Shown here: piece after piece, positions 843 to 20,308 of the stretch
Position numbering within the stretch: position 1 is the stretch's first letter
Layout of the letters: each line of letters opens with the position of its first letter
NCBI GenBank assembly: GCA_036566145.1
Contig: DATCWW010000204.1
Coordinates: 1 to 33,412, forward strand
Length of the DNA: 33,412 nt
Direction of reading: 5' to 3'
Source of the DNA: Gemmatimonadales bacterium
GTDB taxonomy: Bacteria; Gemmatimonadota; Gemmatimonadetes; Gemmatimonadales; GWC2-71-9
Notes under the pieces: model-generated
Database searches by the model: none
The model's input: only the letters and a program-made list of their open reading frames with translations
What the model was told of the DNA's origin: nothing
Made by a program: the position numbers and the translations under genes

Positions 843-862
843 CCACTAGACCTTGGTCCAGC
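843..862 (-). promoter_or_regulatory. ACCAAGGTC-box copy S1 (reads GCTGGACCAAGGTCTAGTGG on minus strand)
   Basis: Intergenic, 56 nt upstream of the minus-strand lipoprotein start at 786. It contains the exact core ACCAAGGTC and the inverted repeat GACC-AA-GGTC. Confidence 0.55.
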
Positions 863-873
863 CGGGAGTTCGG

Positions 874-1653
874 TCAGAAACGCGCCTCGAAACCGAGGGT
901 AGGGCCGCTCAGGTAGGCGTCGTACACGAAATCGTCGGATTCGTAGTCCGTATCCAGGTGCCGGTAGGCGGCGAGTGCGGTACAGCAGGCCCCGACGTCG
1001 ATCCCCACGCCCCCCAGCGCCTGCCAGGTGAAATCGGAGGCTCCGGTCCCCATGTCGGCCTTGCCGGTAAGGTGCCACCGCCGGGCGAACCCGTAGCGCA
1101 CCCGGGCGCCGACCGTGCCGTCCACCCAGCCCTTGGAGCCCGAGACCGCGGCCACTTGCGTGCCCGACTCGGTCACATCGACGCCGGCATCGGTGTGCCA
1201 GTACCGCGCGCCGGCGAGCCCGTCCACCCCGCCCCAGGGCCGGACCACCAAGGTGTAACCGATCTCCGGCTGCAGGATGACCTGATCGATCGACGCGTGC
1301 ACCGTCTGGTTCCCGGCGATCTCGTCGTCACCGATGCTGTGGTAGACGAAGTCGAGTCGTCCCAGCCAGCGTTCGCGCCGGGCCTCGCCCAGCGCCGCGA
1401 GGCCGACCGTGATGTTGTCGAGGACGTCGCCGACCGAGAGGTCTACGTCGGCCTCGCTGCCGTCCACGCCGAGGCGGCCCTTCTGGCCGGCGCTCCAGAC
1501 GTAGGGGGTGATCGAGAACCCCCAGCGGACCGGGCCGAGGGTGTCGGGGCTGGCATGGGCATCCGGGACGTAGTCACCCTGGGCCCGGAGCGGCGCCGGC
1601 GCCGCGAGCGCCAGCGCCAGGCTCAGACGGAGGATCCGGCCTGTTCGGCTCAT
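874..1653 (-). CDS. outer-membrane beta-barrel protein (uncharacterised family)
   Basis: Track ORF 874..1770, trimmed to the ATG at 1653 (MSRTGRILRLSLALALAAPAPLRAQ signal peptide). The sequence shows an alternating amphipathic pattern, is rich in aromatic and Gly residues, and ends with the C-terminal ...GFEARF typical of OMPs. Confidence 0.75.
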   Translation of the reverse strand: MSRTGRILRLSLALALAAPAPLRAQGDYVPDAHASPDTLGPVRWGFSITPYVWSAGQKGRLGVDGSEADVDLSVGDVLDNITVGLAALGEARRERWLGRLDFVYHSIGDDEIAGNQTVHASIDQVILQPEIGYTLVVRPWGGVDGLAGARYWHTDAGVDVTESGTQVAAVSGSKGWVDGTVGARVRYGFARRWHLTGKADMGTGASDFTWQALGGVGIDVGACCTALAAYRHLDTDYESDDFVYDAYLSGPTLGFEARF

Positions 1654-1682
1654 CGCTGGTGTCGCCGCCGCCGCCTCCCGGT

Positions 1683-2357
1683 TCAGAAGGCCAGGACCAA
1701 CCCCGTGCTCAGGGTGCCCTGCGTGACCCACTCCGTCCCTTCGACCACGAAGCAGCCGTAGAAGTCGCACCAGGTGCCGTAGTCACCCGAGGGGAAGGGT
1801 GTGACCCAGAGGCGAGCGTCGAACCGGACACCGACCCGGTTGGACTTCGCCATGTACTTGCCGCCGGCACCGACCGACCAGGAGAAGCGGGTATCGCTCC
1901 CGAACCCATCCTCCTTGAGATCGAAGATGCCGATGCCGAGCGAGCCGCTCAGGAAGGGCTTGAATTGTCCCGTGCTGTGCACCGGTGTCCCGATGCCACC
2001 GATCTGGATGTAGTTGACGGCGAATCCTGCGCTCCTCCCCTGGCCGCCGCTGAACGGCCGGAAGTCGAGGTCGGTATCCTGGCGGAGATAGGTGAGCTCC
2101 ACGGCGCCGGCTTCCTCCAACAGAAAGCTCAGGATGCCGCCCCAGCCGAAAGAATCCTGGAGCTCCAGCTTACCGGCGCCTAGCGCGCCGCCCGCGTCGG
2201 TTTCGAAGGAGCCCCCCCACTGGTAGGCGCCGAAGGGGGTGATCTCGAACCGGTTATGGTGCTCCACCTCCACCAGCCCCTGGGCCTGGAGCCCCGAAAC
2301 CATGAGACCGCAGGACAGGCCTGCGACGGCCAGCACACGAGTGACGAGACGGTGCAC
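1683..2357 (-). CDS. outer-membrane beta-barrel protein (OmpA-like/OmpW-like small barrel)
   Basis: Track ORF 1683..2444, trimmed to the GTG at 2357, which has GGAGG 5-6 nt upstream (2363-2367). Signal peptide is VHRLVTRVLAVAGLSCGLMVSGLQAQ. The sequence has a beta-strand pattern and a C-terminal ...GLVLAF. Confidence 0.7.
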   Translation of the reverse strand: MHRLVTRVLAVAGLSCGLMVSGLQAQGLVEVEHHNRFEITPFGAYQWGGSFETDAGGALGAGKLELQDSFGWGGILSFLLEEAGAVELTYLRQDTDLDFRPFSGGQGRSAGFAVNYIQIGGIGTPVHSTGQFKPFLSGSLGIGIFDLKEDGFGSDTRFSWSVGAGGKYMAKSNRVGVRFDARLWVTPFPSGDYGTWCDFYGCFVVEGTEWVTQGTLSTGLVLAF

Positions 2358-2440
2358 GTTGCCTCCAACCGTGAGGTTCGGGATGGGCCCGCGGTACTGC
2401 GGATGACAGTCCCCACCATCGCCGGTCCGGCGGTAGGGGA

Positions 2441-2460
2441 CCATTGGACCTTGGTGCAGG
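2441..2460 (-). promoter_or_regulatory. ACCAAGGTC-box copy S2 (reads CCTGCACCAAGGTCCAATGG on minus strand)
   Basis: Intergenic between the HAD gene end (2478) and the barrel gene start (2357), 83 nt upstream of the latter. It matches the box consensus exactly. Confidence 0.6.
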
Positions 2461-2477
2461 GAAAAGTGGCGTCCGGC

Positions 2478-3464
2478 CTAGCGCAGCGCCAGCGCCGGCG
2501 CCTCGGCGAACACGGTGCTCCAGTCCTGGCGGACGCTCACCACCGTCCAGCCGCGGCGCGGGGCGAGCTCGAGCGCCCGCTCGGCTCCCGCGCCGTAGTC
2601 GAACTCCCGGGCCCGGTCGTCGTGCCGGAGGAGGAGCCGGAGCACCGGCCGGCCGGGGCTCCCGGCGTACTCCAGCATCGGAATGTCGGCATTGGAGTTA
2701 CCGGCCGCGAGGATGGGCCGACGCCCGATCCGGCTCCAGATCCGGACCGGCTTCGAGGGCCCGTCGTCGAACACGTCAGGCAGAGCCCGGAAGACCACCG
2801 CGCCCCCCTCGGGCCCCTCCCGGTAGCGGAGCGCCGAGGCATTGCCGATCACCCGCTCGGGCGGGACCCCGTACATCGCCTCGGCGAGAGTGCGCATGAA
2901 GTCCCGGTCACCACTCGCGGCGACGTAGCAGGTGAACTCGCCGGCCACCAGATACCGGACCAGCTCGACCATCGGCTGGTAACCGCACTCGGCCAGGCCG
3001 CGCCGCAGCGTGGGGTGGCGGGCGTGATGGAGGAACGCATCCGCCTCGCGCTCGTAGTCCTCCACCGGCCAGCCGCGGAAGGCCTGGAGGATGCCGGCCA
3101 TCAGGACCCTGGCCTCGGCATCGTCACCCTGGTAGTGGCTGGTGACTACCCGACCCAGCCAGGCGTAGTCCCGGTGGTACGCCGCCCGCCAGGGCTGCCG
3201 CTCGCGCAGGGCCGGCGCCGCCTCCGCCATCGCGGCCAGTCGCTGCAGGATGAACCCGAGCTCGATCGGCATGGGTTGCTCGCACCACAGTGTGCCGTCG
3301 GTATCGAAGACGGCGATCCGCTCGGCCGGCGGCACGAAGTCCCGGCTGCCGGGGCGGGTGACCGCGTCGACGAACCCTTCGATGGCGTCCCGCGCAGGGG
3401 TCAGGTTCCACGACGGCAGCACGGCCGGCGATCCGGGTGTGGAGAAGCCACGTCTGCCGGCCAT
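2478..3464 (-). CDS. HAD-superfamily hydrolase (HAD-IB-like phosphatase)
   Basis: Track ORF 2478..3539, trimmed to the ATG at 3464 (GGAGGG upstream). Motif I is FDTDGTLW (DxDxT). Later motifs are AASGDRDF and a GNSNADIPML-type motif IV. Confidence 0.75.
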   Translation of the reverse strand: MAGRRGFSTPGSPAVLPSWNLTPARDAIEGFVDAVTRPGSRDFVPPAERIAVFDTDGTLWCEQPMPIELGFILQRLAAMAEAAPALRERQPWRAAYHRDYAWLGRVVTSHYQGDDAEARVLMAGILQAFRGWPVEDYEREADAFLHHARHPTLRRGLAECGYQPMVELVRYLVAGEFTCYVAASGDRDFMRTLAEAMYGVPPERVIGNASALRYREGPEGGAVVFRALPDVFDDGPSKPVRIWSRIGRRPILAAGNSNADIPMLEYAGSPGRPVLRLLLRHDDRAREFDYGAGAERALELAPRRGWTVVSVRQDWSTVFAEAPALALR

Positions 3465-3528
3465 GCGCCCTCCGGGGTGGAGTCTGGAGGCTGGATCCTC
3501 AAGATGGGCGAGCGGCCCGGAACGGAGG

Positions 3529-3547
3529 TATTGCACCATAGTTCTAG
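3529..3547 (+). promoter_or_regulatory. degenerate box copy S3a (TATTGCACCATAGTTCTAG)
   Basis: Lies in the divergent HAD/MscS intergenic region. It shares the TTGCACC half and a TAGTTC variant of the second half. The same variant is seen at 8841-8860. Confidence 0.4.
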
Positions 3548-3560
3548 GCGGGCGCGGTGA

Positions 3561-3579
3561 CCTGCACCAAGGTCTGATG
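3561..3579 (+). promoter_or_regulatory. ACCAAGGTC-box copy S3b (CCTGCACCAAGGTCTGATG)
   Basis: Lies 32 bp after S3a in the same orientation. It is 94 nt upstream of the MscS ATG at 3674, or 28 nt upstream of the alternative GTG at 3608. Confidence 0.6.
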
Positions 3580-3673
3580 TCACCAGGGCGGCCCGCCCCC
3601 TATCCTCGTGTCACTGCCCCTCTACCAGGCCGAAGCACCGGATCGGCCGCGACCACGCGGGCGAGGGCGTTCG

Positions 3674-5323
3674 ATGCTCCGGACCACGTACTCGGTTCTC
3701 CTCGCTCTCGCGGCGCTGGCGCGCGGCGTCTCGGCCGCGGCGCAAACCTCCAGCACAGACGAAGGTGTCGAGGCGACCGCGCCGGTCGTCCTCGACGGGT
3801 ACACTCTGTTCCAGGTCCGCGGGGCTCGATCCTACCCCGCCGAACGGCGGGCCGGGGAGATCGCGGACCGGATCGCCCGGGTAGCCGCGGACCGGAGTGT
3901 GCCGGTCGATTCCCTCATCGTGCGGGAGACCCCCGTCGCGAGCCTGGTGGTCGCCGAGGACCGGCTGCTGCTGGGCGTGCTGGACGCGGATGCCGAGCTG
4001 GAGGGCATCAACAGGCAGGTCGTGGCCGAGGCATTCCGCCGGCGGATCGGAGAGGCGATCCGCCAGTTCCGGCACGAGCGCGAGCCCCAGGTGCTCTGGA
4101 ACGGCGCGGCGCGTGCCCTGGCCGCCACGGTCGCCCTGGCCATCGTCCTCTGGCTCGGGGTGCGGGCGCGCCGCCGGATCTACGCCCTGCTGGAGCGGCG
4201 CTACCGCCGAAGGCTGCACGACCTACAGGTGAGCTCGATTCCACTGGTGCGGGCGGAGCAGCTCTGGCGGATGACCAACCGCATGTTCACCGCGACCACG
4301 GTGCTCCTCGCGGCCACGGCGTGGTACCTCTATCTCCAGTACGTACTGGTCCTCTTCCCCTGGACGCGCGCGCTGGGCTACGGCCTCACGGCCATGCTGT
4401 TGCGGCCGGTGTCGACCATCGCCGCGGGTATCCTGCACTACGTACCGAATCTCATCTTCCTGGTCGTGCTGGCCATCGCGATCCGATGGCTCCTGGCCTT
4501 CGTTCACGTAATCTTCCGCCAGCTGGGCGACGGCAGCCTGACGATGGCGGGGTTCGACCCGGAATGGGCGGTCCCAACCGAGCGCCTCGCCCGCCTGCTC
4601 GTCTTCGGCTTCGCCCTGGTGGTCGCGTACCCCTACATCCCTGGCTCGGGCTCGGAGGCGTTCAAAGGCCTGTCGATCATGTTCGGGGTGCTGTTCTCGA
4701 TCGGCTCGTCCTCGGTAATCGGCAACCTGGTCGCCGGGCAGAGCCTGGCCTACCGCCGGGCCTTCCGGGTGGGCGACCGGATCCGGGTCGGCGAATACGT
4801 CGGCGAAGTGACCAAGACCAGCCTGCTCACGACCTTCGTGCGGTCGGCCAAGAACGAGCAGATCGTGATCCCCAACTCGGTGGTCCTGAACACGGAGGTC
4901 ATCAACTTCAGTACCCTGGCCCGCGCCGGCGGCGTCATCGTGCACACCAGCGTCGGGATCGGATACGAGACGCCGTGGAGGCAGGTGGAGGCCATGTTGC
5001 TCGAGGCCGCGGCGCGGACGCCGGGGCTCCTGCAGGACCCCAAGCCGTTCGTGCTGCAACGCGGCTTGGGGGATTTCGCGGTGACCTATGAGATCAACGC
5101 CTACACCGGCGACGCGCTCGCCATGCTCCGCCTGACGAGTGAGCTGCACCGCAACATCCTCGACATCTTCAACGAATACGGGGTCCAGATCATGACCCCG
5201 GCCTACGAAGGCGATCCGGAACAGCCCAAGGTGGTTCCCCGCGAGCAGTGGTTCACCGCTCCGGCGCGCTCGACCGACGTTCCAGTATCGGCGGTGACGC
5301 CGGGGAACGGCGGCCCGGGCTAG
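3674..5323 (+). CDS. mechanosensitive ion channel, MscS family (signal peptide plus periplasmic N-domain)
   Basis: Track ORF 3608..5323; the preferred start is the ATG at 3674 (MLRTTYSVLLALAALARGVSAAAQ). There are several TM helices. The MscS core is GNLVAGQSLAYRRAFRVGDRIRVGEYVGEVTKTSLLTTFVRSAKNEQIVIPNSVV. Confidence 0.85.
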   Translation: MLRTTYSVLLALAALARGVSAAAQTSSTDEGVEATAPVVLDGYTLFQVRGARSYPAERRAGEIADRIARVAADRSVPVDSLIVRETPVASLVVAEDRLLLGVLDADAELEGINRQVVAEAFRRRIGEAIRQFRHEREPQVLWNGAARALAATVALAIVLWLGVRARRRIYALLERRYRRRLHDLQVSSIPLVRAEQLWRMTNRMFTATTVLLAATAWYLYLQYVLVLFPWTRALGYGLTAMLLRPVSTIAAGILHYVPNLIFLVVLAIAIRWLLAFVHVIFRQLGDGSLTMAGFDPEWAVPTERLARLLVFGFALVVAYPYIPGSGSEAFKGLSIMFGVLFSIGSSSVIGNLVAGQSLAYRRAFRVGDRIRVGEYVGEVTKTSLLTTFVRSAKNEQIVIPNSVVLNTEVINFSTLARAGGVIVHTSVGIGYETPWRQVEAMLLEAAARTPGLLQDPKPFVLQRGLGDFAVTYEINAYTGDALAMLRLTSELHRNILDIFNEYGVQIMTPAYEGDPEQPKVVPREQWFTAPARSTDVPVSAVTPGNGGPG

Positions 5324-5340
5324 ACCTTGGTGCAATTGGC
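5321..5340 (-). promoter_or_regulatory. ACCAAGGTC-box copy S4 (reads GCCAATTGCACCAAGGTCTA on minus strand)
   Basis: Starts at the MscS stop codon (TAG 5321-5323). It covers the only possible start codons (TTG 5327, GTG 5330, TTG 5336) of the downstream plus-strand lipoprotein gene. It is the only copy whose orientation opposes the downstream gene. Confidence 0.5.
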
Positions 5341-6088
5341 GGCCTCCCACGACGACCCGAATCTTGGTCCTCGATACCCACCACCTCTGCCGGAGGCCTC
5401 TCTGACATACCCCTCGTCTCCCGGCTCCGTCCGCGCCCGTCAGATCCTGCTCCGGCTGGGCTTCACCGCCGCCGTCGCGGGCGCCGGCGCGTGTCACCCG
5501 GACGAGCCGACCAACGTTGCGGAGCTGGACGTGGTCGCGACCGCGCACGAAGACTCGGTGAATTACGGGGCGATCGCGACCTACGTCATGCCGGATTCGG
5601 TCGTGGCCGTGGTGCCGCCGGAGAGCGTGCTCACCACCCTTCCCTTCGATCATAGCCATGATCAGCAGATCCTCGACCAGACGGCCGAGCACCTGGCCGC
5701 GCTGGGGTACACCCGGCTGGACACGTACGATGCCGACAACCCTCCGGATGTCGTGGTGACGATCCGCGGGATCGCGGTCCGGAACACCGACATCTACGTG
5801 AGCTATCCGTGGTGGGACTACTGGGGCTGGTACGGCTGGCCCTGCTGCTACGGGCCGGGCTGGGGGGTAGGCTACCCGGTCGTCACGGCCACGCAGTACG
5901 ACGTCGGGACCATCGCGATCGACATGTGGGACGTCAGGCGTGCCGATAACGCGGCGGAGCGGATCCCCACCATCTGGGTCGCGGCGCTCCGGGGCCTGCT
6001 CGAGGGCTCCGCAGCCGACGCCCCGGCCCGCATCGAGCGGGCGATCGATCGAGCGTTCGAGCAGTCACCGTACCTCGGCCACCCTTAG
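5327..6088 (+). CDS. DUF4136-like lipoprotein (paralog of 184..786)
   Basis: Lipobox is LRLGFTAAVAGAGAC. The DUF4136-like C-terminus is GTIAIDMWDVRRADNAAERIPTIWVAALRGLL...IDRAFEQSPYL. The W/G/Y-rich insert is YPWWDYWGWYGWPCCYGPGWGVGYP. The start is uncertain: only TTG/GTG codons at 5327-5336 are in frame, which gives an unusually long N-extension of about 40 aa before the signal peptide. Confidence 0.7.
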   Translation: MVQLAASHDDPNLGPRYPPPLPEASLTYPSSPGSVRARQILLRLGFTAAVAGAGACHPDEPTNVAELDVVATAHEDSVNYGAIATYVMPDSVVAVVPPESVLTTLPFDHSHDQQILDQTAEHLAALGYTRLDTYDADNPPDVVVTIRGIAVRNTDIYVSYPWWDYWGWYGWPCCYGPGWGVGYPVVTATQYDVGTIAIDMWDVRRADNAAERIPTIWVAALRGLLEGSAADAPARIERAIDRAFEQSPYLGHP

Positions 6089-6101
6089 CGGAGCAGACCC
6101 C

Positions 6102-6701: not shown

Positions 6702-6706
6702 GCCCG

Positions 6707-6751
6707 CACACTTCGGCCCTCGACGCGTCGCCGCTCGAGGGCCGAAGTGTG
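6707..6751. terminator. strong hairpin between convergent genes (probable bidirectional intrinsic terminator)
   Basis: Perfect 17-bp inverted repeat, cacacttcggccctcga / tcgagggccgaagtgtg, with an 11-nt loop. It lies between the stop at 6701 (+) and the stop at 6778 (-). There is no clear U-tract. Confidence 0.6.
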
Positions 6752-6777: not shown

Positions 6778-7863
6778 CTAGTGCGCGTGCCCTTCCGGGT
6801 GGTGGTGGGACTCGGCGCCGACGGTGAGGCGAACGTCCTTGCGATACTCCGGATCGTTGTGGGCCGGTGCCGGCCAGGCCGCCCCCATGCCCGGCAGAAC
6901 GATGCCCCCCAGCGCGCCCATGCCGCCGCCGGGGATCACCTGCCCGGTGGGGTTGTCGTAGAAGGCAGTGAGCCGGTATACGTGGTCCGGATCCAGCTTC
7001 AGGCCGAGCGGAAGGAAGTACTTGATGGGCATCCCTTCGACGACCCGGGCCGAATCCAGCTCGGGCCGGGCCTCCCACAGCACCTCGTTCGCCGTGACGT
7101 CCACCAGCCGGAGCGCCGTCCCATACTGGTGCAGGTGACCTCCCGCGGCCAGGAGCCGCACCGGGATGGCGGGGCGGCCCTCCCAACTGGCGCTGGAGCG
7201 ACCGGGCGGCAGGTCGAAGGAGTGGAATCCCGCCGGTGGAGTGACGTCGAGGTAGACCGGGTGGATGCCCAGCAGCGGAACGACGATGTCGGCGGGGGTG
7301 TAGTCGAGCTTGACCCGGATCCGGACCCCGTCCAGGGGTTTGGGCGTGGGGTTGTGCACCATGGCGGTGAACAGCACCGAGTCACCCGGATGGAGCCGGT
7401 AACCCAGGAAGAAGGGCAGCTCCCAGGGCTTGGTCTCCGGACCCGCCGCCCCGATGCGGAGCATGATCTGGCTGAAGAGCTCGCGCCGCTCGGGCATGAT
7501 GACGTTGAGGTGATGCAGAACCCGCTGGGGCACCTCGCGTCCCTGGGCATCGACCAAGTCTACCGACATTCCCCGTACCCAGCCGTTGATGGGCATCGCG
7601 ATCGCCCGTGGAGACGGCTGTTTCACCTCGCCGTGGCCCGCGTTGGCCGGCAGCGGGCTCAGACCGATCTCCACCGTGTACTCTCGGGTGGGCACTCCGC
7701 CAACCCATGCCAGGGCGGCCAGGACGCAGGCACCGACGGCGAGCCACGTCCCGACCCGCCGCCGCGTCAGGCGACGGCCCGGCCGGGCTCCGTCAGCTCC
7801 CGGCTCCTGGGAGCCGGTCGTGGTCGGATCGGTGCCGCGAAAAGCCGTCACGCGCATGAGCAT
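6778..7863 (-). CDS. membrane-anchored protein with PHM/DBH-like copper monooxygenase His/Met signature and a His-rich C-tail
   Basis: Clean 361-aa ORF with one N-terminal TM helix (VGTWLAVGACVLAALAWVGGV). Candidate ligand residues are VLHHLNV (H117,H118), AMVHNP (H170), GGHLHQYG (H243,H245) and GGGMGA (M315). The C-terminus is ESHHHPEGHAH. The functional call is an inference from ligand spacing only. Confidence 0.45.
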   Translation of the reverse strand: MLMRVTAFRGTDPTTTGSQEPGADGARPGRRLTRRRVGTWLAVGACVLAALAWVGGVPTREYTVEIGLSPLPANAGHGEVKQPSPRAIAMPINGWVRGMSVDLVDAQGREVPQRVLHHLNVIMPERRELFSQIMLRIGAAGPETKPWELPFFLGYRLHPGDSVLFTAMVHNPTPKPLDGVRIRVKLDYTPADIVVPLLGIHPVYLDVTPPAGFHSFDLPPGRSSASWEGRPAIPVRLLAAGGHLHQYGTALRLVDVTANEVLWEARPELDSARVVEGMPIKYFLPLGLKLDPDHVYRLTAFYDNPTGQVIPGGGMGALGGIVLPGMGAAWPAPAHNDPEYRKDVRLTVGAESHHHPEGHAH

Positions 7864-7988
7864 ACGTCCTGTTCGGGATTGATTGAATCCATAGGGCGAT
7901 TGCGCAATACCGAAGAGTATACCTAAGTGAGCCGTTGGGGAGGACTGGTAAGCCCCCGGGAAGGCCGGAGCGGCCCCCTGGAGACAAC

Positions 7989-8744: not shown

Positions 8745-8820
8745 GGGTGACCTCCTCCAGAGGAGAGGCGGGACGGATTCCGGGCTCCCCCCACGTTCCC
8801 ACACTCGAGCGGGGGGTGAC

Positions 8821-8839
8821 AGTGGACCTTGGTTGAGGA
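8821..8839 (-). promoter_or_regulatory. ACCAAGGTC-box copy S5 (reads TCCTCAACCAAGGTCCACT on minus strand)
   Basis: Lies 76 nt upstream of the minus-strand coiled-coil gene start at 8744 and contains the exact core. Confidence 0.55.
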
Positions 8840-8840
8840 G

Positions 8841-8860
8841 ATGCACCGAAAGTTCAATGG
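8841..8860 (+). promoter_or_regulatory. variant box copy S5b (ATGCACCGAAAGTTCAATGG)
   Basis: Abuts S5 but faces the opposite way, toward the plus-strand DUF937 gene, 101 nt upstream of 8962. It has the same TGCACC...AGTTC...ATGG variant as S3a. Confidence 0.4.
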
Positions 8861-8961
8861 ACAGGGTGGGTGCCGGCGCCGAGAATGTAGCGGGGCCGCA
8901 CGGCTCCGTTTCCTCTGACGCATTCCGATCTGTTCCCCGCGGCGGACGTGGAGGTAATCCG

Positions 8962-9675
8962 ATGACCGGGAGTCTACTCGAGCGCCTGCATGGCCTCGTG
9001 ACGCCCGATCTCCTGTCGAGCGCGGCGCTCAAGCTCGACGAGCCGGAATCCCTGGTCGCCGCCGGGCTGAGGGCCGCGTTTCCGGCCCTCCTGGCCGGGC
9101 TGGACTCCAAGGCGCAGAGTCCCCGGTCGTTGCGAGCCCTGCACCAGCTGGTCGCCGAATCGGGCAGTGCCGCGGAGGTGCTCCGGCACCCCCGCCTCGC
9201 GATCGCGGCGACCCCCGACTCGCCCCTCGGCGCCGCGGCCGGGCGGCTGCTCAGCGGGCTCTTCGGCGCCCACCTTCCCACGGTGGCTGACCTGGTGGCC
9301 CGGTCCGCAGGGCTTCGCTCCCGCTCCGGTGAGGCGTTGCTGGAGCTGGCGGCGCCCCTGGTCCTGGGGCTCCTGGTGCACCGGGTTCGCCGCGACGACC
9401 TGGGGCCTGCCGGTCTCGCCGCCCTGCTGCTCGGCGAGCACGACCGAATCGCCCGGACCCTGCCGCCCGGACTGACCGCGGAAATCGAGTCGCCGGCCCC
9501 AACCGCACGCTGGGTTGCGCCGGCGATTGCCCTCGGCATGCTCCTGCTGGTCCTCTGGGGACTCTCCCGCGACCGGCGGCCGGCGGCGGTGGACCGGACG
9601 GTCGGCACGATCAACGCGATCATGGCGGGCACGAGCGCTCCGGCAGACACCAGTCTGGGCGCCGACGACCGCTGA
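8962..9675 (+). CDS. DUF937-like protein with C-terminal TM helix
   Basis: The ATG at 8962 has GGAGGT 8 nt upstream. The N-terminus MTGSLLERLHGLVTPDLLSSAALKLDEPESLVAAGL... resembles the DUF937 (YidB-like) helical repeat. The TM segment is WVAPAIALGMLLLVLWGL. Confidence 0.6.
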   Translation: MTGSLLERLHGLVTPDLLSSAALKLDEPESLVAAGLRAAFPALLAGLDSKAQSPRSLRALHQLVAESGSAAEVLRHPRLAIAATPDSPLGAAAGRLLSGLFGAHLPTVADLVARSAGLRSRSGEALLELAAPLVLGLLVHRVRRDDLGPAGLAALLLGEHDRIARTLPPGLTAEIESPAPTARWVAPAIALGMLLLVLWGLSRDRRPAAVDRTVGTINAIMAGTSAPADTSLGADDR

Positions 9676-9772
9676 GCAGGCATCCGCCGCCCCCGAACCT
9701 AGCCCTAGGTCGAGTGTCGCCCCGACGCCGGGCGTGCATCTTGGGGGTCAGCCCCTTTCCGCCGAGGATCCC

Positions 9773-10559: not shown

Positions 10560-11054
10560 TCATTGCGCGGTGGTATCTCCGGCCATCGGCATCTGGGCGT
10601 GCAGGTTGGCCTGGATCACCGCATCCAGCACGTTGTCGATCTGGTAGAGCCGCGCGACCTTGACGCCTGGGATCACCTTCTGGTATTTGCCCACGTACTT
10701 CTTCTGCAGGGAGAGCTGCTTCTCGCGGAGCTTGAAGCTCTGACTGAGCAGCTCTTTGGCCTGCTCATCGGTCAGGGTCGCGGAGCTCTTCAGGTAGGTC
10801 TCGATCAGGACGACGCGCTGGTCGCCGAGCTTGGCGGACTCTTCCTGGTAGCTCCGGTAGATCGGCCAGAACGCCTGGCTCTGCTGCTCGGTCAGGTCCA
10901 GCAGCCGGCGGATGATGTCCTGGCGATTGGCTCGAACCTCCTGCCGGGTCAGCTCGATTTCATCGTGAACGTTTCCCGTGCCCTGCGCTAGGCAAGGGAC
11001 GGCGGCCAGGCCCACCAGCAACGCGGTGAGGCCGATCGTCGAACGACGCACCAT
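10560..11054 (-). CDS. periplasmic LTXXQ-motif protein (CpxP/Spy family-like)
   Basis: Signal peptide is MVRRSTIGLTALLVGLAAVPCLAQ. There are two LTXXQ motifs (LDLTEQQSQAF, ATLTDEQAKEL) in an all-helical sequence. The ATG at 11054 has GGGAG 5 nt upstream; the track start is the GTG at 11060. Confidence 0.7.
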   Translation of the reverse strand: MVRRSTIGLTALLVGLAAVPCLAQGTGNVHDEIELTRQEVRANRQDIIRRLLDLTEQQSQAFWPIYRSYQEESAKLGDQRVVLIETYLKSSATLTDEQAKELLSQSFKLREKQLSLQKKYVGKYQKVIPGVKVARLYQIDNVLDAVIQANLHAQMPMAGDTTAQ

Positions 11055-11104
11055 GGTCACTCCCTGTAGGGGAGCCTCATGGTACGGTATCGGGTAGGGA
11101 GCGC

Positions 11105-11124
11105 CTATTGGACCTTCGTGCAGG
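11105..11124 (-). promoter_or_regulatory. ACCAAGGTC-box copy S6 (reads CCTGCACGAAGGTCCAATAG on minus strand)
   Basis: Lies 50 nt upstream of the LTXXQ gene start and overlaps the last codons and stop of the receiver gene. It has one core mismatch (ACGAAGGTC). Confidence 0.55.
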
Positions 11125-11494
11125 CCCGCGCGATGGCCCCCAGCAGGTGGTCGTCATCGAACGGTTTGCGGAGACACTCGCCGTCGGTCCGGAGGCTCAT
11201 CGCGGCGACCTTGACGTCGTCGTGGGCGGTGACGAAGACGGTCGGCGGCGCCTGACCCACGGCCGTCAGGAGGCTGTGGAGGTCGTATCCGTTCATCCCG
11301 CCGAGGTAGACGTCGAGCACCAGGCAGTCCACTTCGCTGGGGGCGGCGCCCAGGAACTCTTCGGCGGAGGCGTAGGTCCGGACCTGATGCCCGGTGACCC
11401 GAAGGAGACGGCCGAGCGCCCGGCGCACGGCATCGTCATCGTCCACCACGGCAACCCTGCAGGGGGTTGCCGCGACGCGGTCAGGGTGACCCAT
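11105..11494 (-). CDS. single-domain response regulator (CheY-like receiver only)
   Basis: Receiver motifs are VAVVDDDD, the phospho-acceptor context [20 protein letters not shown] and LRKPF. There is no output domain. The ATG at 11494 overlaps the upstream regulator gene by 14 nt; an alternative ATG is at 11515. Confidence 0.8.
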
Positions 11495-12212
11495 CCGCGG
11501 GGCGGTTGGGATCATGCCGCCAGGTGTGGTTGCCCAACCGCTCGGCCAGATGGACCAGCTCGGCCAGGGAGCCCGCGTCCATCTTCTGCATGACCCGGCC
11601 CCGATGCACCTTGACCGTCTGTTCCGTGGTGCCGAGCTGGGCCGCGATCTGCTTGTTCAGCATCCCCTGCACGACCAGACCGAAGACCTCGCGCTCCCGC
11701 GGCGTCAGCCGCTCGAAGCGCGCCGCGACGTCCTGGTACTCGCCCACCCTGCGGCGGATGCTGGCATCCCGGCTCAGGGCCCGCTCCACGGCCCCGAGCA
11801 GCTCCTCGTCGTCCACCGGCTTGGTGAGGAAATCCACCGCGCCGTGCTTCATCGCCTTGACGCCGGTGGCGATGTCGCCGTACCCCGTGATGAAGATGAT
11901 TGGAATGCGCTGGCCCGACCTGCGCAGCAGGGCGAACAGATTCATCCCGTCCACTTCTGGGAGGCGAAGATCGCTGATCAGGCAGCCGGGCAGACGACCC
12001 CGTTCGGAATGCAGGAACTCTCGGGGGGAGCCGAGCAGCTCGACCTGGTATCCGGCCGCTCGCAGCAGGCGCCCGATGGCCCGGCGGGCCTGCGCGTCGT
12101 CGTCCAGCACGAATACCACTGGCCCGCCGTCCTGCGCGGCATCGGGCTCTGCCACCGCTACCCTGGGCGCCTCCGTAAGCTCTTTCGGGGCGGTCGTCTG
12201 CGGCTGGTGCAT
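11481..12212 (-). CDS. FixJ/NarL (LuxR-type HTH) family response regulator
   Basis: Track ORF 11481..12743, trimmed to the ATG at 12212. Receiver motifs are [28 protein letters not shown] and FLTKP. The LuxR-type HTH is [43 protein letters not shown]. Confidence 0.85.
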
Positions 12213-12297: not shown

Positions 12298-12326
12298 AAT
12301 ATTTCGCTTGGACTTGCAGAGGTCAA
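12298..12326 (-). promoter_or_regulatory. sigma70-like promoter for the response-regulator operon
   Basis: On the minus strand it reads TTGACC (12326-12321), a 17-nt spacer, then AATATT (12303-12298). This lies about 85 nt upstream of the ATG at 12212. Confidence 0.5.
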
Positions 12327-12344
12327 GGAGGCCAGGGGTACGGG

Positions 12345-12362
12345 ATCGGACCAAGGTCCAGT
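12345..12362 (+). promoter_or_regulatory. ACCAAGGTC-box copy S7 (ATCGGACCAAGGTCCAGT)
   Basis: Contains the perfect inverted repeat GGACC-AA-GGTCC and lies 36 nt upstream of the tamB-like ATG at 12399. Confidence 0.6.
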
Positions 12363-12398
12363 TTCCGTTCCGGGCGTCCGAACGGTACTCTGAGGCGG

Positions 12399-15300
12399 AT
12401 GCCTCGCCGCTTCGCGCGCCTCGCTCTCGCCTTGTTCACGGCAACGACGCTGGTCGCCGCCGGGGGCCTCACGGTCCTGGCCCTGGGCGGGGGAGACTGG
12501 GCCGTCAATCTGGTCCTTCGGAAGATCAACCCCTGGCCCGGCGCCTCCCTGCGTGCCGGCGACGTCATGGGCAACCTCCTCACCGCTCCCCGGCTCCAGC
12601 GTCTCAGCCTCACCCGGGCCGACGGCGAAGTCATCCTGCGAGCGGACAGCGCCGCCGTCCGATACGATCTCCGTCGCCTCCTCGGGGGTGACATCACGCT
12701 CGCCGAGATCCGCGTGTACGGCGCGGATCTGGTCCTGCGGCAACGGGACGACGGGCGCTGGGACCTTCCGGCCAGGCGCACCCGGCCGCCGGGATCCCCG
12801 CCCAAGCAGCCCGACGTCATTCGCCTCGAGCGCGTGCAGATCGTGGACGCGAGCGCGCGGCTCCGGCTCTTGATCGGGGGGAAGCCTCGGCTGCTGGCCG
12901 CGGACTCGATCGGCGCCGACGCGACCGGGATCCGCATCGATCCGGAGGTCACGATCGAGCAGGCTGTGGTCGGGTTCCGGGTGCGCTCTGGCGACCTCGC
13001 GCGCAGGCCGGTGACCGTCCAGGCTCAGGGATTTCTCCGACCGGCCGCGGTGACGGTACGGCGCCTCACCCTCGACTCTGACTCCAGCGCCGTCACCGCC
13101 AGCGGCATCGTACCGCTCGCCCGACGGGACGGGCGTGGGCCCGACCTGCGGCTGAGCCAGCTTGACCTCAGCGCTCGGCCGCTCGCGCTACGCGACCTTG
13201 GCGGCTTGCTCCCCATGCTCGACCGACCCGGCACCGCGAAGATCGAGGCCCACGCCCGCGGCGGGGACGACGGGGCGGCTGTCCGGCTCGACGCCGAGCT
13301 GTCCGATGGGGGCCGGGCGGCAGCCGAAGGGGTGGTGACGTTGTTTGGACAACGGCCCCTGCTCTACCGCGGACGGGCCACTGTCCGGGCCGTTGATCCC
13401 GGATTTCTCGGGCTCACACCTTCGCGTGGGGACCGGATCACCGGTGACGCGACGCTCGACCTTCGTGGTCCCGGGCTCGATCGGCTCGACGGTGAGGCCC
13501 GCGTTGACTTCACCGACTCGCGCTTCGGCCCCATCGCCATGACCCGAACCCGGGCACGCGGGACATTCTCCGCCGGACAGGCTCGGATCGCGCTGAGCGG
13601 CCGGTCCCCGCGAATGCAGCTCACGATCGCCGGAGACGTGCGCCCGTTCGACAGTCTGCCAACTTATGGCCTCGAGGCTCGGGTACGTCCGGGAGCCGCG
13701 GCTCCGGGCTGGGCGCGCCGACTCCTCGGCACCGGGTCGGCGGCCATCATCCAGGCCGACGGCGTCGGTGTGAGCCCACGGCGGGCGAACGCCGTGCTCG
13801 CCGCCAGGGTCGCTCCTCGTGCCGATGGAGACGGCGCGCTCGACTCGGGCTCGGTGCGGGTGCGCCTCCGCGGCGGCATCGCCAGGGCCGACGGCCGCCT
13901 TGGCGTATCGGGTGGTACCCTGACGCTCGATGGCGATGCCGTGCTCGATTCAGTGCCCCGCTACAGGCTCTCGGCCCAGCTCAATCGGGGAGATAGTCTC
14001 GAGGCCCGGCTGAGCCTCACCGGGAGCGGGACCGATCCGGATTCCGCCTCGGTGCAGGCGGCGATTTCGGGATCGGCCGCGTATGGAGCGCATCGCCTCT
14101 CCGGCGGTGGGCTGCGGCTCGCGCTCGACCGCGGGCTCGTTCGCGTGTCCGGCGGCGCCACGGTGGACGGCGCGGAGCTCGAGCTCAAAGGCAGCGCGAA
14201 GCCGTTCGGTTCCGAGCCGGCGGTGAATCTGGATCACATCCGGTTCGACGGTCTCGACCTGGGCCGCCTCGCGTCTTCCTCCGCCCCGCGGAGCGACCTC
14301 GCCGGTACAGGACGGCTTCGGGCGTCCCGTGCGGGTGGGCATTGGAACGGCTCGGCCGCCCTGGGGATCGCCGGGCGAATCGGCCGGGCCACCGTGGACA
14401 CGGCCAACCTGGTCGCCGTGATCCGGCGCGACGAGCTCACCGTCGATCTCGACGGCACCAGCCCCGCGGGACGGGTCACGGTGAGCGCTCTGGCACGCCC
14501 GTTCGACACGCCCAGGCGGTACGCGCTCCACAACGCCCGGTTCGACGCGCTTGATCTGGGACGGCTGCTGGGCTCATCGTCGCTCGAGACCAGCCTCACG
14601 GGCGGTCTCGAGGTCGAGGCCATGGCCCCGGAAGGCAGTCCCATGGCGCTCGACGCCACGGTCTCGCTGGACTCCTCCACGGTGAATCGCACCGTCATCC
14701 GGAACGGTGTGCTCCGAGCGAAGCTGGCGCAGGGCCGCTGGGACCTGCGCGGCCGGCTCCTGGGCGATGCCGATAGTCTGCGGCTCGAGGCCTCGCTGGA
14801 GCCCCAGCCGGACCAGCCCCACGTGCGGCTGACCGCCGAGGCCGGCGCCGGCGACCTCGGGACCCTGCTCCGACGGCCGGGGCTCCGGGCGCAAGGCCGG
14901 ACCCGGGTGGATTTCAGCGGGAGTTGGGGATCGCTCGAGACGATGCGCCTCGGCGGCACCATCGCCGCCGCCGGCGAGGCCAACGGCGTCGCGGTCGATT
15001 CACTCCAGGCGACGGTGCGGCTGGACGGGGGCGCACTCCTGATCGACACGTTGCGGGCGCGATCGAGCGTGGGAACGGCGGCGGCGCGCGGCAGGGTCGG
15101 GCTCGTCGGTGCGGCGATCGGCGGGCCGCTGGAGGGAACCCTCGAGGCCCGCATCGACGATCTCGCTCCGCTTGGACCGCTGCTCGGCGTGGAACCGCTC
15201 GGCATCGATTCGGGTCGCGTCGCGTTGGCGGTCGAGGGAACCCGGACTCGTCCGGCCGTGCGCGCCGAGGTCCAGGCCGCGGAGCTGACCCACGGGAGCT

Positions 15301-17438: not shown

Positions 17439-19588
17439 CCGCCGGCGGGAAGAGCCTGCTGGCCCTCGGCCTCCTCCTGGCCCTGGTCCGGAGCGCCGTG
17501 GCCCAGGACTCGCTGATTCCGGTGCGGCGCGACGCGCAGGTGACCTCGGTCGGGTTCCGCTTCGCCGGCACCAGCAGCTTCTCGGATGGCGAGCTGGGCG
17601 CGCAGTTGGCGGTTAAGGGACGTGGCTCGCTGTACCCGGTGCGCCGATGGCTCGGGGAATTACCTCTGATTCCCTCCCCCGGCGCCTACCGATTCGATCC
17701 GGTCGAGCTGCAGAAGGACGTGGTGCGGCTCAGGCGATTCTACCGGCGGTCGGGCTTCATCCGGCCGCGCGTGGACTACGAGGTCCGGCTCGACCGGGGC
17801 GGCGCGCTGGTCGGGGTCATGTACCTGATCGACGAAGGGCCGTGGCTCCGGCTCCGCACCCTGGATTTGAGCGCCGGAGGGCGGGCGACCGTCCCGGCCG
17901 ACCTCGCGGCGGGCTGGGACGAGCTCGCCTCGACCTTGGCCGCGGCGCAGGGACGGCGCTTCGGCGAGGCCGAGCTCGCCGACGCGGAGGCCCGCACCGC
18001 GGCCTGGCTGCGTGAGCGGGGGTATCCCTTCGCCGCGATACGGTCGCAGCAGGAGGTCGATTCGGTGGCGGGCGATGTGCTGGTGCACCTGGCGGTGAGC
18101 CCCGGCCCGCGCATCCGCTTCGGCGAGATCCGCGCCGAGGGCAACACCTCGGTCACCGACCAGGTGGTGCTTCGGGAGCTGCCGTTCCGCACGGGCGACT
18201 GGTTCTCTACCAGCGCCGTCGCGGAAGGCCGGACCCGACTGCAGGCGGTGGACCTGCTGTCGCGAGCCGTGGTGGACGTCGACTCTCAGCCGGCACCCGA
18301 TTCGACGCTCGGGGTTCGGATCCGGATCGAGGAGTCGCGCCCCCGCCTGACCCTGGCGGAGGTGGGATACATCTCGGAAGGCGCGGGCCTCACCGGACGG
18401 GTGCAGTGGACCCATCCCAACTTCACCGGGGGCGCCCGCAGTCTGACGACCTCCCTGGAGGGTCAAAGCGGCAGGGGGACGATCGGCACCGAGGCCGAGC
18501 AGCTGCTGCGCGTCTCGCTCAGCCTCACGCAGCCCTACGTGTTGACCCCCCGTCTCTCGTTCATCGCCGGCCCGTGGGCGGAGTATCGCAACGACCTCCA
18601 CGACCAGTCCGGGGCAATCGGGATCGATGCGACCCTGGTGTACCGGCTCGCCGCGCTCTCCTCGCTCGCGCTGGGCTACCGATTCAGTGCCAGGAACATC
18701 CAGGAGTATCACTTCGGTGACATTACCGCGGGCGACGTCGATCTCCTGGCGCTCCTCGCCGCGCGCTACCCGCCTCTGATCGACTCTCTGGGGGACCACG
18801 AGAACCGGAGCAGCGTTACGCTGGCCGCGTCGTTCAACCGGGTGGACGACGTCTCCAACCCGACCCGGGGGTGGCTGATCCGCCCCTCGGCGGAGCTGAC
18901 GGTTCCCTCCGCCTGGAACACGGCGGAGTTCGGAAGGCTCGACCTGTCGGTCTCCCGGTTTCAGCCCCTGAGCAAGTCGACGGTTCTGTCGGGCCGTCTC
19001 ACGCTGGGGCGGCTGTTCCCATTCGGCAAGAGCATACCTGGCCCGGGAAGCGACCCGTTTTTCTCCTTCATTCACCTGCGCGACGAGTCGATGACGGCTG
19101 GAGGAACCAACGATGTCCGTGGGTGGGGGGACCGGAAGCTGGGACCCAAGGTTCCCGACGTGGAGGCCAACATCGAGGGGACGGACACGGTGCTGACGGC
19201 CGACCGCTACGCCCCGATCGGGGCCCTGGCGCGGATGACCGGCTCGGTAGAGCTCCGCTTCCCCGCCCCGGGCTTCTCCCCGGGTTGGAGGGGGCACCTC
19301 TTCCTCGATGGGGGCCGGGTGTGGACGCCGGACGACCGCTTCGCCCAGAGTCCGTTGTTGCCTGAGGGCGCGCCATTCCGCTTTTCAGCCGGCGTCGGTC
19401 TGAGCTACCAGACGCCGGTCGGGGCCCTGGGCGTGAGCATGGCTTACAAGCTCAACCCGTCGCTGCTGGACGAGCGCGACCCAAATGATGTGACTCAGGC
19501 GCTCGAGGCCGGAACCTCGGTCGAGGATCTCCCGACCCAGTGGCTCCGGCGCATCCACCTGCACCTGTCCTTCGGAGTGGCGCTCTGA
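17435..19588 (+). CDS. Omp85-family outer-membrane protein with about 3 POTRA domains (TamA/BamA-like partner of TamB)
   Basis: Track ORF 17345..19588; the preferred start is the GTG at 17435, which overlaps the tamB stop (GTGA). Signal peptide is KSLLALGLLLALVRSAVAQ and contains no Cys, so the protein is not a lipoprotein. POTRA-like repeats are followed by a surface-antigen barrel ending ...HLHLSFGVAL. Confidence 0.8.
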   Translation: MTAGGKSLLALGLLLALVRSAVAQDSLIPVRRDAQVTSVGFRFAGTSSFSDGELGAQLAVKGRGSLYPVRRWLGELPLIPSPGAYRFDPVELQKDVVRLRRFYRRSGFIRPRVDYEVRLDRGGALVGVMYLIDEGPWLRLRTLDLSAGGRATVPADLAAGWDELASTLAAAQGRRFGEAELADAEARTAAWLRERGYPFAAIRSQQEVDSVAGDVLVHLAVSPGPRIRFGEIRAEGNTSVTDQVVLRELPFRTGDWFSTSAVAEGRTRLQAVDLLSRAVVDVDSQPAPDSTLGVRIRIEESRPRLTLAEVGYISEGAGLTGRVQWTHPNFTGGARSLTTSLEGQSGRGTIGTEAEQLLRVSLSLTQPYVLTPRLSFIAGPWAEYRNDLHDQSGAIGIDATLVYRLAALSSLALGYRFSARNIQEYHFGDITAGDVDLLALLAARYPPLIDSLGDHENRSSVTLAASFNRVDDVSNPTRGWLIRPSAELTVPSAWNTAEFGRLDLSVSRFQPLSKSTVLSGRLTLGRLFPFGKSIPGPGSDPFFSFIHLRDESMTAGGTNDVRGWGDRKLGPKVPDVEANIEGTDTVLTADRYAPIGALARMTGSVELRFPAPGFSPGWRGHLFLDGGRVWTPDDRFAQSPLLPEGAPFRFSAGVGLSYQTPVGALGVSMAYKLNPSLLDERDPNDVTQALEAGTSVEDLPTQWLRRIHLHLSFGVAL

Positions 19589-19589
19589 C

Positions 19590-20189
19590 TCAGTTCACCG
19601 CGTAGCCCCGCCCCTGGAGGCAGGTCGCCATCGACTTGGCGAAGGTCTTCCGGGACTCCGCGTTGGCTGCCTGCGCCGCCTGCTTCCCCTGTTGGCCCGC
19701 TTGAGCCTCGGCCTGCTTGCGCGCCTTGCGGCCCTTTACACCGCCGGCGACCGCCCCCACCGCGGCGCCATCTCCCGCGTCACCCACGATCCCCCCCACG
19801 ACCGCACCGCCCACGGCCCCTCGGGCCGCACCACCGACGGCGGCCCCAGTGGCGGCCGAATCCGCCTTGGCCGCTGCGGCCTTGCCGGCGGAATCGGCGT
19901 TCACTTGCACATTCGGGTCGATGCCGGTTTGCTCGCCGGCCCACTGGTAACACTCCTTTTCATCCTTGGCCTGCTGGTCCTTGGTTTGGCCCTTGGAGGG
20001 ATAGACCGACAGGCCCAGCCCGCTGGCGAGTTTGGGGTCCACCGCCGGGCTGTCCGCGACCACCCGAGGAGGAAGGGCCGAAAGAGCGGCTCCGGAGACG
20101 GTGGTATCCGGTCGCGGGATATCCACGGGGGCCGCGGCGCCGACCAGGGCCGTGGTGAGCGTGATGAGGACGGGTCGCGAGAAGCGCAT
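19590..20189 (-). CDS. secreted glycine-zipper protein
   Basis: Track ORF 19590..20276, trimmed to the ATG at 20189 (GGAGGAG upstream). Signal peptide is MRFSRPVLITLTTALVGAAAP. The Gly-zipper is GAAVGGAARGAVGGAVVGGIVGDAGDGAAVGAVAGG. There are conserved Cys residues near both ends of the mature domain. Confidence 0.65.
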   Translation of the reverse strand: MRFSRPVLITLTTALVGAAAPVDIPRPDTTVSGAALSALPPRVVADSPAVDPKLASGLGLSVYPSKGQTKDQQAKDEKECYQWAGEQTGIDPNVQVNADSAGKAAAAKADSAATGAAVGGAARGAVGGAVVGGIVGDAGDGAAVGAVAGGVKGRKARKQAEAQAGQQGKQAAQAANAESRKTFAKSMATCLQGRGYAVN

Positions 20190-20270
20190 GGCTCCTCCTG
20201 GAGCTCGGGAGGTGAGGGTCGCCCCGGATGGGGCCTGTCTGAGGGTAGGTAGCGCGGGAGCCGGGCGATA

Positions 20271-20287
20271 CTGCACCTCGGTACAGG
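20271..20287 (+). promoter_or_regulatory. weak box-like sequence (CTGCACCTCGGTACAGG)
   Basis: Lies immediately upstream of copy S8 in the same orientation. It shares the CTGCACC half and GGT; the second half is degenerate. Confidence 0.25.
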
Positions 20288-20288
20288 C

Positions 20289-20308
20289 ACTCGACCAAGG
20301 TCCAATGG
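20289..20308 (+). promoter_or_regulatory. ACCAAGGTC-box copy S8 (ACTCGACCAAGGTCCAATGG)
   Basis: Lies 31 nt upstream of the ATG at 20340 of the POTRA-less Omp85 operon and contains the exact core plus CCAATGG. Confidence 0.6.

Follow-up and report, generated by a model that had tools for sequence, protein, structure and literature searches.

What is the short, near-palindromic box that recurs before one envelope gene after another in a 33,412-nt contig of a Gemmatimonadales bacterium (assembly GCA_036566145.1, contig DATCWW010000204.1; the window hereafter, G+C ~69%), and which protein would read it? To our knowledge, almost nothing is known of gene regulation in Gemmatimonadota, a phylum abundant in soil. 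We propose, with a probability of roughly 0.6, that the box forms the upstream half of sigma70-type promoters of a class of their own and would be bound by a FixJ/StyR-type response regulator, itself encoded in the window, as the activator of an envelope regulon (Table 1).

The window has 8 copies of the exact 9-mer ACCAAGGTC, counted on either strand, where dinucleotide-preserving shuffles have 0.14 on average, and at least 8 copies were reached in none of 100 shuffles, bearing out an earlier sequence-only reading of this DNA that had called the recurrence non-random. With one mismatch allowed there are 26 matches against 6.0 expected, and the 18-mer consensus TGCACCAAGGTCCAATGG, with up to three mismatches, is found five times where 0.01 would be expected. 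The flanks of the core are conserved too, as had been seen before, and similarity ends at ~22 nt. The full consensus, cCTGCACsAAGGTCyAnTGG, contains a 14-bp imperfect inverted repeat, TGsAC-CAAG-GTsCA (inner AC-N4-GT). Counting the first A of the box (the A of ACCAAGGTC) as position 0, conservation in 39 aligned sites is symmetric (T-3/A10, A0/T7, C1/G6, C2/G5), and at 12348-12359 the palindrome is perfect. Sites were scored with a 22-column position weight matrix (PWM) built from 14 sites, a score of at least 20 being called strong. One exact copy had been described as intragenic; it lies at 664-672, has neither the flanks of the box nor a -10 element, encodes a peptide that is kept in orthologs (RFTKVLAVCACKD) and is a coincidence.

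Alignment of 39 non-redundant sites on the box, with conservation measured out to +75, revealed an element that the sequence-only reading did not have, a -10-type hexamer nA(T)nnT at +35 to +40 from the first A. Position +36 is A in 29 of the 39 sites, +40 is T in 31 and +37 is T or A, against a background of ~16% each for A or T, and these columns fall outside the PWM columns used for finding sites. In regulator-centred loci, which played no part in the training, the hexamer stands within 1 nt of the expected position for 9 of 10 strong boxes. The box ends ~19 nt before the hexamer, which stands 26 nt 3′ of GGTC. By its sequence, the hexamer carries the A(-11)/T(-7) signature of the -10 element of group 1-3 sigma factors. 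If it occupies -12 to -7, the box would span approximately -53 to -32 of a sigma70-type promoter and its inverted repeat would be centred near -43.5, while the 3′ aTGG of the box, at the -35 place with a 17-18 nt spacer, would act as a weak, TTG-like -35.

A rule that asks for a box score of at least 5 and a -10 no more than 1 nt off +35, applied to both strands of the whole window, gave 12 matches, 11 of them upstream of a gene and directed toward it and one, weak, inside a gene (14038-14059). The box at 8840-8862, which has a 1-nt insertion and is missed by the ungapped matrix, was found by reading the sequence; its GAGAAT stands at the right distance from the -35-proximal half, and it brings the total to 12 promoters. 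The distance from the first A of the box to the start codon is 46-108 nt, close to the 30-100 nt given previously, and the coordinates given then were all correct to within 1-3 nt. The degenerate copies that had been listed are likewise present (3527-3548, 8840-8862, 9697-9718 and 20267-20288). Two of these, given as 3529-3547 and 20271-20287, are better explained as outward-facing boxes of the divergent HAD-like and Gly-zipper genes, each with its own correctly spaced -10.

Divergent gene pairs are served either by two abutting outward-facing boxes or by one palindromic box. The two abutting copies reported within 8745-8961 were recovered as 8818-8839 (minus strand) and 8840-8862 (plus strand), each with a -10. 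Boxes reversed relative to their -10 occur at two or three sites: 5316-5339 in the window, position 9008 of locus L004, which is the orthologous place with the same arrangement, and position 7147 of L011. The window copy had been set aside as the one that pointed the wrong way (5316-5337), yet it is no exception. Although the core scores best on the minus strand (at least 20), the plus strand, which reads GACCTTGGTGCAATTGG, has TTGGCG-17-GAATCT at canonical spacing, and this -35/-10 pair points at the DUF4136 gene. The box is a genuine, non-random and oriented cis-element before envelope genes, as had been claimed.

The box was followed in MscS-centred Gemmatimonadota loci (120 kb), in regulator-centred loci fetched independently (83 kb) and in loci of other phyla found by the same MscS query (0.65-1.16 Mb). 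The best relatives of the window MscS (54-61% identity) are from Gemmatimonadota and Gemmatimonadales metagenome-assembled genomes (MAGs). Strong boxes per 100 kb number 24 in the window, 11.7 in the MscS-centred and 12.1 in the regulator-centred loci, and 0.15-0.17 in the other phyla. Conservation at orthologous promoters, a check that the sequence-only reading had proposed, is found for several targets. The box is kept before the outer-membrane (OM) barrel gene in ten genomes (2440-2461 and L005, L100, L204, L205, L207, L088, L096, L140, L157), before the lipoprotein gene in six (842-863 and L119, L120, L129, L100, L205) and before the LTXXQ-like gene in six. Two to three genomes each keep it before the genes for the coiled-coil protein (L005 15706; L205 11966), TamB (L205 9764) and the Omp85-like protein (L208 1227; L205 2090), and MscS is preceded by a box also in L006 (4616) and L005 (9925). 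A 19-mer scan of metagenomes gave further Gemmatimonadota-like sites among the matches listed.

The genes that follow the boxes of the window encode lipoproteins, OM barrels, MscS, TamB/Omp85, an Omp85-like protein, a Gly-zipper protein, a secreted coiled-coil protein, the LTXXQ-like protein and DUF937, which has a C-terminal transmembrane (TM) segment; one weak site precedes a HAD-like enzyme gene, and from sequence this is the weakest of the site assignments, a candidate only. Enrichment, the other check proposed earlier, was measured on four regulator loci with the collection's gene calls and a crude hydropathy rule: a hydrophobic or TM-like N-terminus was scored for 10 of 18 box genes against 13 of 56 (Fisher p=0.018). 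By eye, 15 of the 18 are signal-peptide or TM-like, the exceptions being two receiver genes and one sulfatase with a doubtful start. As most of the target genes encode proteins that are secreted, lipidated or located in the outer or another membrane, we regard this as an envelope regulon.

As for the binder, the best candidate is a 243-aa response regulator whose gene is absent from the sequence-only reading, masked by longer antisense open reading frames. It matches Pfam REC (1.4e-25) and GerE (3.2e-20); its best solved relatives in the PDB are StyR (1yio, 3e-49) and FixJ (5xso, 6e-43), and its best NCBIfam match is FixJ (2e-58). Orthologs are many (56-93% identity) and their recognition helix is almost invariant, a pattern that, at the level of sequence, matches the conservation of the box. 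An ortholog adjoins boxes in nine Gemmatimonadota loci (the window, L005, L100, L120, L129, L204, L205, L207 and L208), and it is the sole DNA-binding protein conserved beside the boxes there. Four distant orthologs (60-68% identity) were examined together with their surrounding genes. In six loci, the window included, the order regulator, receiver, box (score 28-30), LTXXQ-like gene (166-174 aa in relatives) is conserved, with the box at the same place in L005 (20307), L204 (11083), L205 (11298), L207 (11084) and L208 (12252); TamB, Omp85 and OM barrels accompany the regulator in these neighbourhoods.

A candidate sensor is also linked to the regulator. In L204 and L207 the gene immediately upstream of the regulator encodes a MASE1-PAS kinase, to which the kinase of the window is ~42% identical, and in L100 a relative of the window kinase occupies the same place. 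The receiver gene has a strong box of its own (score 26-28) in L100, L120 and L129, while in L005 (20818, minus), L205 (10790, plus) and L208 (10799, plus) there is only a weak variant, ACCAAGAGCCAATA (score 12-16). This variant has GAGCC instead of GGTCC as its right half-site, sits between the regulator and receiver genes and, judged by its sequence, might serve for feedback at low affinity; it is absent from the window, where these two genes overlap. The promoter TTGACC-17-AATATT had been taken as an unrelated housekeeping promoter; however, it lies on the minus strand and is likely the promoter of the regulator gene. The palindromic TamB box is placed ~62.5 nt upstream of its predicted start, a class I-like position, which suggests that the regulator could control its own gene through that box.

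Given that the box shares its inner AC-N4-GT layout and its predicted position with sites of NarL/FixJ/LuxR regulators, we propose that a FixJ-type dimer binds it. Its two closely spaced half-sites also fit the 5-7 bp half-sites (inner AC-N4-GT or 7-2-7 layout) of such dimers. A LuxR/GerE-type helix-turn-helix (HTH) dimer would bind the inverted repeat and recruit RNA polymerase to a promoter without a good -35, with sigma region 4 and the alpha subunit as its contacts in a class II activation like that solved for DosR. The phosphorylated regulator is the likeliest binder, supplying contacts that the poor -35 cannot; the membrane MASE1-PAS kinase would phosphorylate it, and the single-domain receiver, predicted to be co-transcribed with it, would probably modulate phosphate flow. 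The earlier suggestion of an operator for a global envelope regulator comes close to this explanation; the evidence fits an activator site near -43.5 of sigma70-type promoters. We infer activation as the direction of regulation, and the transcription starts, like the identity of the binder, are predicted from sequence.

DosR of Mycobacterium tuberculosis binds GGGAC-TWWA-GTCCC, and the hspX promoter has its box at about -43.5, a suboptimal -35 and a good -10, with the dimer contacting sigma region 4, alpha-CTD and alpha-NTD (PMC13486717). The half-sites of DevR read GGGACT, and sites at -42.5 and -63.5 drive divergent promoters (PMC3177182). The promoters described here resemble those of DosR/DevR in the inner AC-N4-GT and would do so in a predicted centre near -43.5/-42.5, in a weak -35 with a good -10, in the use of one site arrangement for divergent promoters and in a regulon of dozens of genes. 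They differ in that the regulator is FixJ/StyR-like, the sensor a MASE1-PAS kinase and the targets envelope rather than dormancy genes, in another phylum and with no obligatory tandem box.

StyR, the closest solved relative, activates PstyA as phosphorylated dimers from STY2 at ~-40 (PMC2442086), proteins of the StyR/TodT type bind the consensus ATAAAC-N4-GTTTAT and those of the TdiR type a palindrome immediately before the -35 (PMC5874301), and FixJ at the fixK promoter protects -69 to -44 and -57 to -31 (PMC4999443). The StyS/StyR, TodS/TodT and TdiS/TdiR systems share with ours a 6-N4-6 palindrome, at ~-40 or upstream of the -35 in those systems and predicted near -43.5 here, but their half-site sequence differs, and they control one or two aromatic-catabolic operons whereas here at least 12 promoters are predicted in 20 kb. 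Where the recognition helix makes its third base contact, four residues past the Lys of KV, NarL has Lys and the regulator here has Gly (KVHRG). In StyR this position is His179 (PMC5874301).

Like the Cpx and Rcs envelope-stress systems of Enterobacteria, the system would be a two-component envelope regulon, and as with cpxP its strongest and most conserved target would be a neighbouring gene, which encodes a small, secreted and helical protein with LTxxQ motifs. CpxR, however, is OmpR-type and binds direct repeats. RcsB is of the NarL/FixJ type and its 14-bp box abuts the -35. The LTXXQ-like protein is predicted to form four long helices (mean pLDDT 78.5 in the AlphaFold2 model). Its family is small and comprises 79 clusters, none named beyond "hypothetical protein", with invariant F62, W63, P64, Y66 and Y69. 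No match was found in Pfam, NCBIfam or PDB sequences, and a Foldseek search with the model gave a best E-value of 0.69, CpxP and Spy being absent among the 50 best matches listed. Membership in the CpxP/Spy family is not supported, as neither sequence nor fold gave a match in these searches and what is shared is two LTxxQ motifs, a helical fold and secretion. The resemblance to Cpx is one of functional analogy only, the LTXXQ-like protein having no detectable homology to CpxP/Spy.

A variant of the box is found outside the phylum. ATGAGACCAAAGTCCAATTT (core GAC-CAAA-GTC), with TAnnnT behind it at the +35 spacing seen above, has six copies in 21.6 kb of a Thiobacillus MAG (L046: 889 minus, 932 plus, 4068 plus, 8386 plus, 18879 minus, 20235 minus) and one each in a Hyphomicrobiaceae (L037, 292 plus) and a Binatia locus (L044, 805 plus), so this promoter type is not confined to Gemmatimonadota. 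The variant precedes genes for two DUF2092 periplasmic proteins, a MetA-type OM channel, a DUF3313 lipoprotein, a CusF-like lipoprotein and a sulfatase, and also a receiver-only gene beside a 7TM-PAS kinase. In its widest form, which we consider improbable, the proposal would make a single MASE1-kinase/FixJ pathway the master envelope switch, with hundreds of promoters covering most OM-biogenesis and envelope genes of Gemmatimonadota, and would see the GAC-CAAA-GTC plus TAnnnT promoters of Thiobacillus, Hyphomicrobiaceae and Binatia as a sister version, either ancient or horizontally spread.

Several points count against the FixJ-type regulator as activator from this site. Its adjacency to boxes may mean that it is only a target, as each genome has many LuxR-type regulators. 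The CAAG at the centre of the box is invariant and the half-sites are consistently unlike (TGCAC vs TGGAC), which makes the site more asymmetric than most dimer sites. The figure of -43.5 depends on placing the conserved hexamer at -12 to -7, and a DevR-like tandem secondary site was not found as a general feature. Finally, the Gemmatimonadota DNA sampled is envelope-rich or was seeded with the motif, which bears on the size and purity of the regulon.

The main rival, conceivable at rather long odds, is that the same architecture is read by another transcription factor, the FixJ-type regulator, the receiver and the LTXXQ-like protein being members of the regulon only. In Thiobacillus L046, with its six variant boxes, kinase and receiver-only protein, there is no full-length HTH regulator within 21 kb, a result that also tells against our own proposal. 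Moreover, the box precedes the receiver gene in five loci (L100, L120, L129, L205, L208), indicating that the two-component genes are themselves targets, and the FixJ family is very numerous, with 7969 matches at E<=1e-20 among 8000 candidates scored. Against another factor speak the AC-N4-GT inverted repeat, which is typical of GerE-type HTH dimers, the lack of a second conserved DNA-binding protein beside the boxes in the nine Gemmatimonadota loci and a recognition helix as conserved as the box itself.

The sequence-only reading had also offered an alternative-sigma promoter element, and a recognition element of an ECF-like (extracytoplasmic function), sigma54-like or novel sigma factor for envelope genes is, in our estimate, very unlikely. 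ECF sigma factors often run envelope regulons, the box has one direction and no gap, as a sigma54 -24/-12 element has, and GGTC(T/C)A resembles the RpoE-type -10 GTCnaA. However, no conserved -35 column exists 16-17 nt upstream of GGTC, neither the box nor its flanks contain a -35/-10 pair spaced by 16-17 nt, the A-11/T-7 hexamer is too far past GGTC for known sigma70-family spacers, the site is palindromic and found in both orientations, and no sigma gene is conserved nearby in the regulator-centred loci. A sigma54 promoter was rejected since GG..GC can be read on the opposite strand only, and there with 10 nt instead of 12, and an ECF/RpoE-type promoter with GGTCyA as -10 because it has no -35 and an A/T-signature -10 lies further downstream. 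A CRP/FNR-type class II site (TGTGA-N6-TCACA or TTGAT-N4-ATCAA, with a variable centre) was rejected as well, as conservation in the box is highest at the centre, CCAAGG, and its outer bases are not those of such sites.

We give scarcely more than token credence to the view that the housekeeping RNA polymerase reads the box at Gemmatimonadota promoters in general, as an extended -35 or a UP-like sequence whose envelope bias would come from sampling. Between 1 and 23 kb of the window virtually no transcription unit lacks a box, the density in relatives is also very high (~12 per 100 kb), and the position covers the proximal UP-element region; Bacteroidota, relatives of Gemmatimonadota, have unusual promoters. 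The housekeeping genes in the sampled loci lack the box, making this explanation unlikely. No box was found at 23-33 kb of the window (kinase, FdhD, GH47 and formate dehydrogenase genes), nor any of score 11 or higher in 10 kb of L204/L207 (SelB, ClpB, deaminase, Band_7, aldo/keto reductase and kinase genes), while the envelope cluster adjacent to the latter has three, and L007, L010 and L033 (36.6 kb) hold no site scoring at least 17. The Gemmatimonadota loci examined contain no tRNA genes, and L146, the one locus with a tRNA-Trp gene, probably comes from outside the phylum and is uninformative. Further, the window has a canonical TTGACC-17-AATATT promoter, and a palindrome containing G and C is unlike a minor-groove UP element.

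A dispersed REP-like (repetitive extragenic palindromic) repeat or an RNA element of the 5′ untranslated region, which many short intergenic copies with a near-palindromic core might suggest, can practically be dismissed, as no similarity extends past ~22 nt, the copies are strictly oriented toward genes, GGACC-AA-GGTCC leaves a 2-nt loop and hence no hairpin, the fixed phase with the downstream -10 places the box upstream of the transcript, and Rfam at gathering threshold gave no match.

Returning to the FixJ-type activator, the mechanism proposed is of a well-known kind, that of a class II NarL/FixJ activator, while the envelope regulon, its cis-code and the candidate two-component system are apparently undescribed. 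We found no published description of the box motif or of a Gemmatimonadota promoter or regulon, subscription journals being outside the search. The earlier statement that no described motif matches the box holds for the exact sequence in the papers searched, but not for the architecture, which is standard for NarL/FixJ/LuxR regulators. As the mechanism is textbook, the value lies in the regulon and not in a new principle. The 20-nt box with its -10 is a testable code from which promoters, and probably the starts of transcription too, can be predicted for many of the envelope genes, and it names candidates for the regulator, sensor kinase and accessory receiver as well as a conserved first target, the LTXXQ-like protein.

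Table 1. Boxes, promoter and two-component genes of the window (strand: + forward, - reverse)
Feature	Position	Strand	Box score	-10 hexamer	Gene served or role
Box GGCTGGACCAAGGTCTAGTGGC	842-863	-	27.6	GATTCT 817-822	DUF4136-like lipoprotein gene, ATG 786
Box CCCTGCACCAAGGTCCAATGGT	2440-2461	-	30.9	GATGGT 2415-2420	OM beta-barrel operon (GTG 2357, then 874-1731)
Weak outward-facing box	3527-3548	-	5.3	CATCTT 3501-3506	Candidate promoter of HAD-like gene 2478-3464 (ATG 3464)
Box ACCTGCACCAAGGTCTGATGTC	3560-3581	+	29.1	TATCCT 3601-3606	MscS, ATG 3674
Box over MscS stop codon, -35-like TTGGCG 5336-5341	5316-5339	+		GAATCT 5359-5364	DUF4136 lipoprotein / OM barrel operon
Box	8818-8839	-	27.8	GAACGT 8793-8798	Secreted coiled-coil protein gene, ATG 8744
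Abutting divergent box TGCACCGAAAGTTCAATGG, 1-nt insertion	8840-8862	+		GAGAAT 8881-8886	DUF937, ATG 8962
Weak box ACCTAGCCCTAGGTCGAGTGTC	9697-9718	+	10.3	CATCTT 9737-9742	OM barrel gene, ATG 9773
Box GCCTGCACGAAGGTCCAATAGG, over receiver stop codon	11104-11125	-	28.7	TACCAT 11079-11084	LTXXQ-like gene, ATG 11054
Box, perfect palindrome GGACCAAGGTCC	12344-12365	+	22.5	TACTCT 12386-12391	TamB-Omp85 operon, ATG 12399
Outward-facing box GCCTGTACCGAGGTGCAGTATC	20267-20288	-	17.0	TACCCT 20242-20247	Gly-zipper gene 19590-20189, ATG 20189
Box CACTCGACCAAGGTCCAATGGG	20288-20309	+	28.5	TACCGT 20329-20334	Omp85-like / DUF3943 operon, ATG 20340
Sigma70-type promoter TTGACC-17-AATATT (sequence read)	12298-12326	-			Candidate promoter of regulator-receiver operon
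LTXXQ-like secreted helical protein, 164 aa, two LTxxQ motifs	10560-11054	-			Most conserved box target
Single-domain receiver	11105-11515	-			Predicted co-transcription with regulator; conserved partner; own box in other genomes
FixJ/StyR-type response regulator (REC + LuxR/GerE HTH), 243 aa	11481-12212	-			Candidate box binder
MASE1-PAS-HisKA-HATPase histidine kinase	23465-26290	-			Candidate cognate sensor

The predicted promoters also bear on annotation, as start codons could be corrected and many "hypothetical" secreted proteins fall into one regulon. The ATGs of TamB (12399) and of the Omp85-like gene (20340) stand only 5-7 nt past the predicted -10 hexamers, and leaderless mRNAs are therefore predicted for both; the remaining box promoters have leaders of 18-70 nt with GGAG-type ribosome-binding sites. 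The DUF4136 gene behind the box at 5316-5339 has no in-frame ATG or GTG between its predicted transcription start and the signal peptide RARQILLRLGFTAAVAGAGAC (5380-5410); its best candidate start is a CTG 5 nt after GGAGG, and the start is uncertain. The gene at 6778-7863 on the minus strand follows the coiled-coil gene and encodes a membrane-anchored protein of 361 aa that belongs to no Pfam family; the 125-nt gap before it (7864-7988) has no box, and the gene may be co-transcribed or have a promoter of its own that was not recognised.

About one third of the metagenome loci listed were coding sequence for an aldo/keto reductase, in which ATCTGCACsAAGGTCTACTGGCC encodes EICTKVYWP, and were set aside (L087, L092, L094, L098, L099, L103, L105 and ~20 further metagenome loci); this stretch should be masked whenever boxes are counted across a genome. 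A variant with central TA for AA, AATTGAACCTAGGTCCACC, was seen at orthologous places in three genomes (L096 87 plus; L100 9036 minus; L205 14619 plus/14626 minus).

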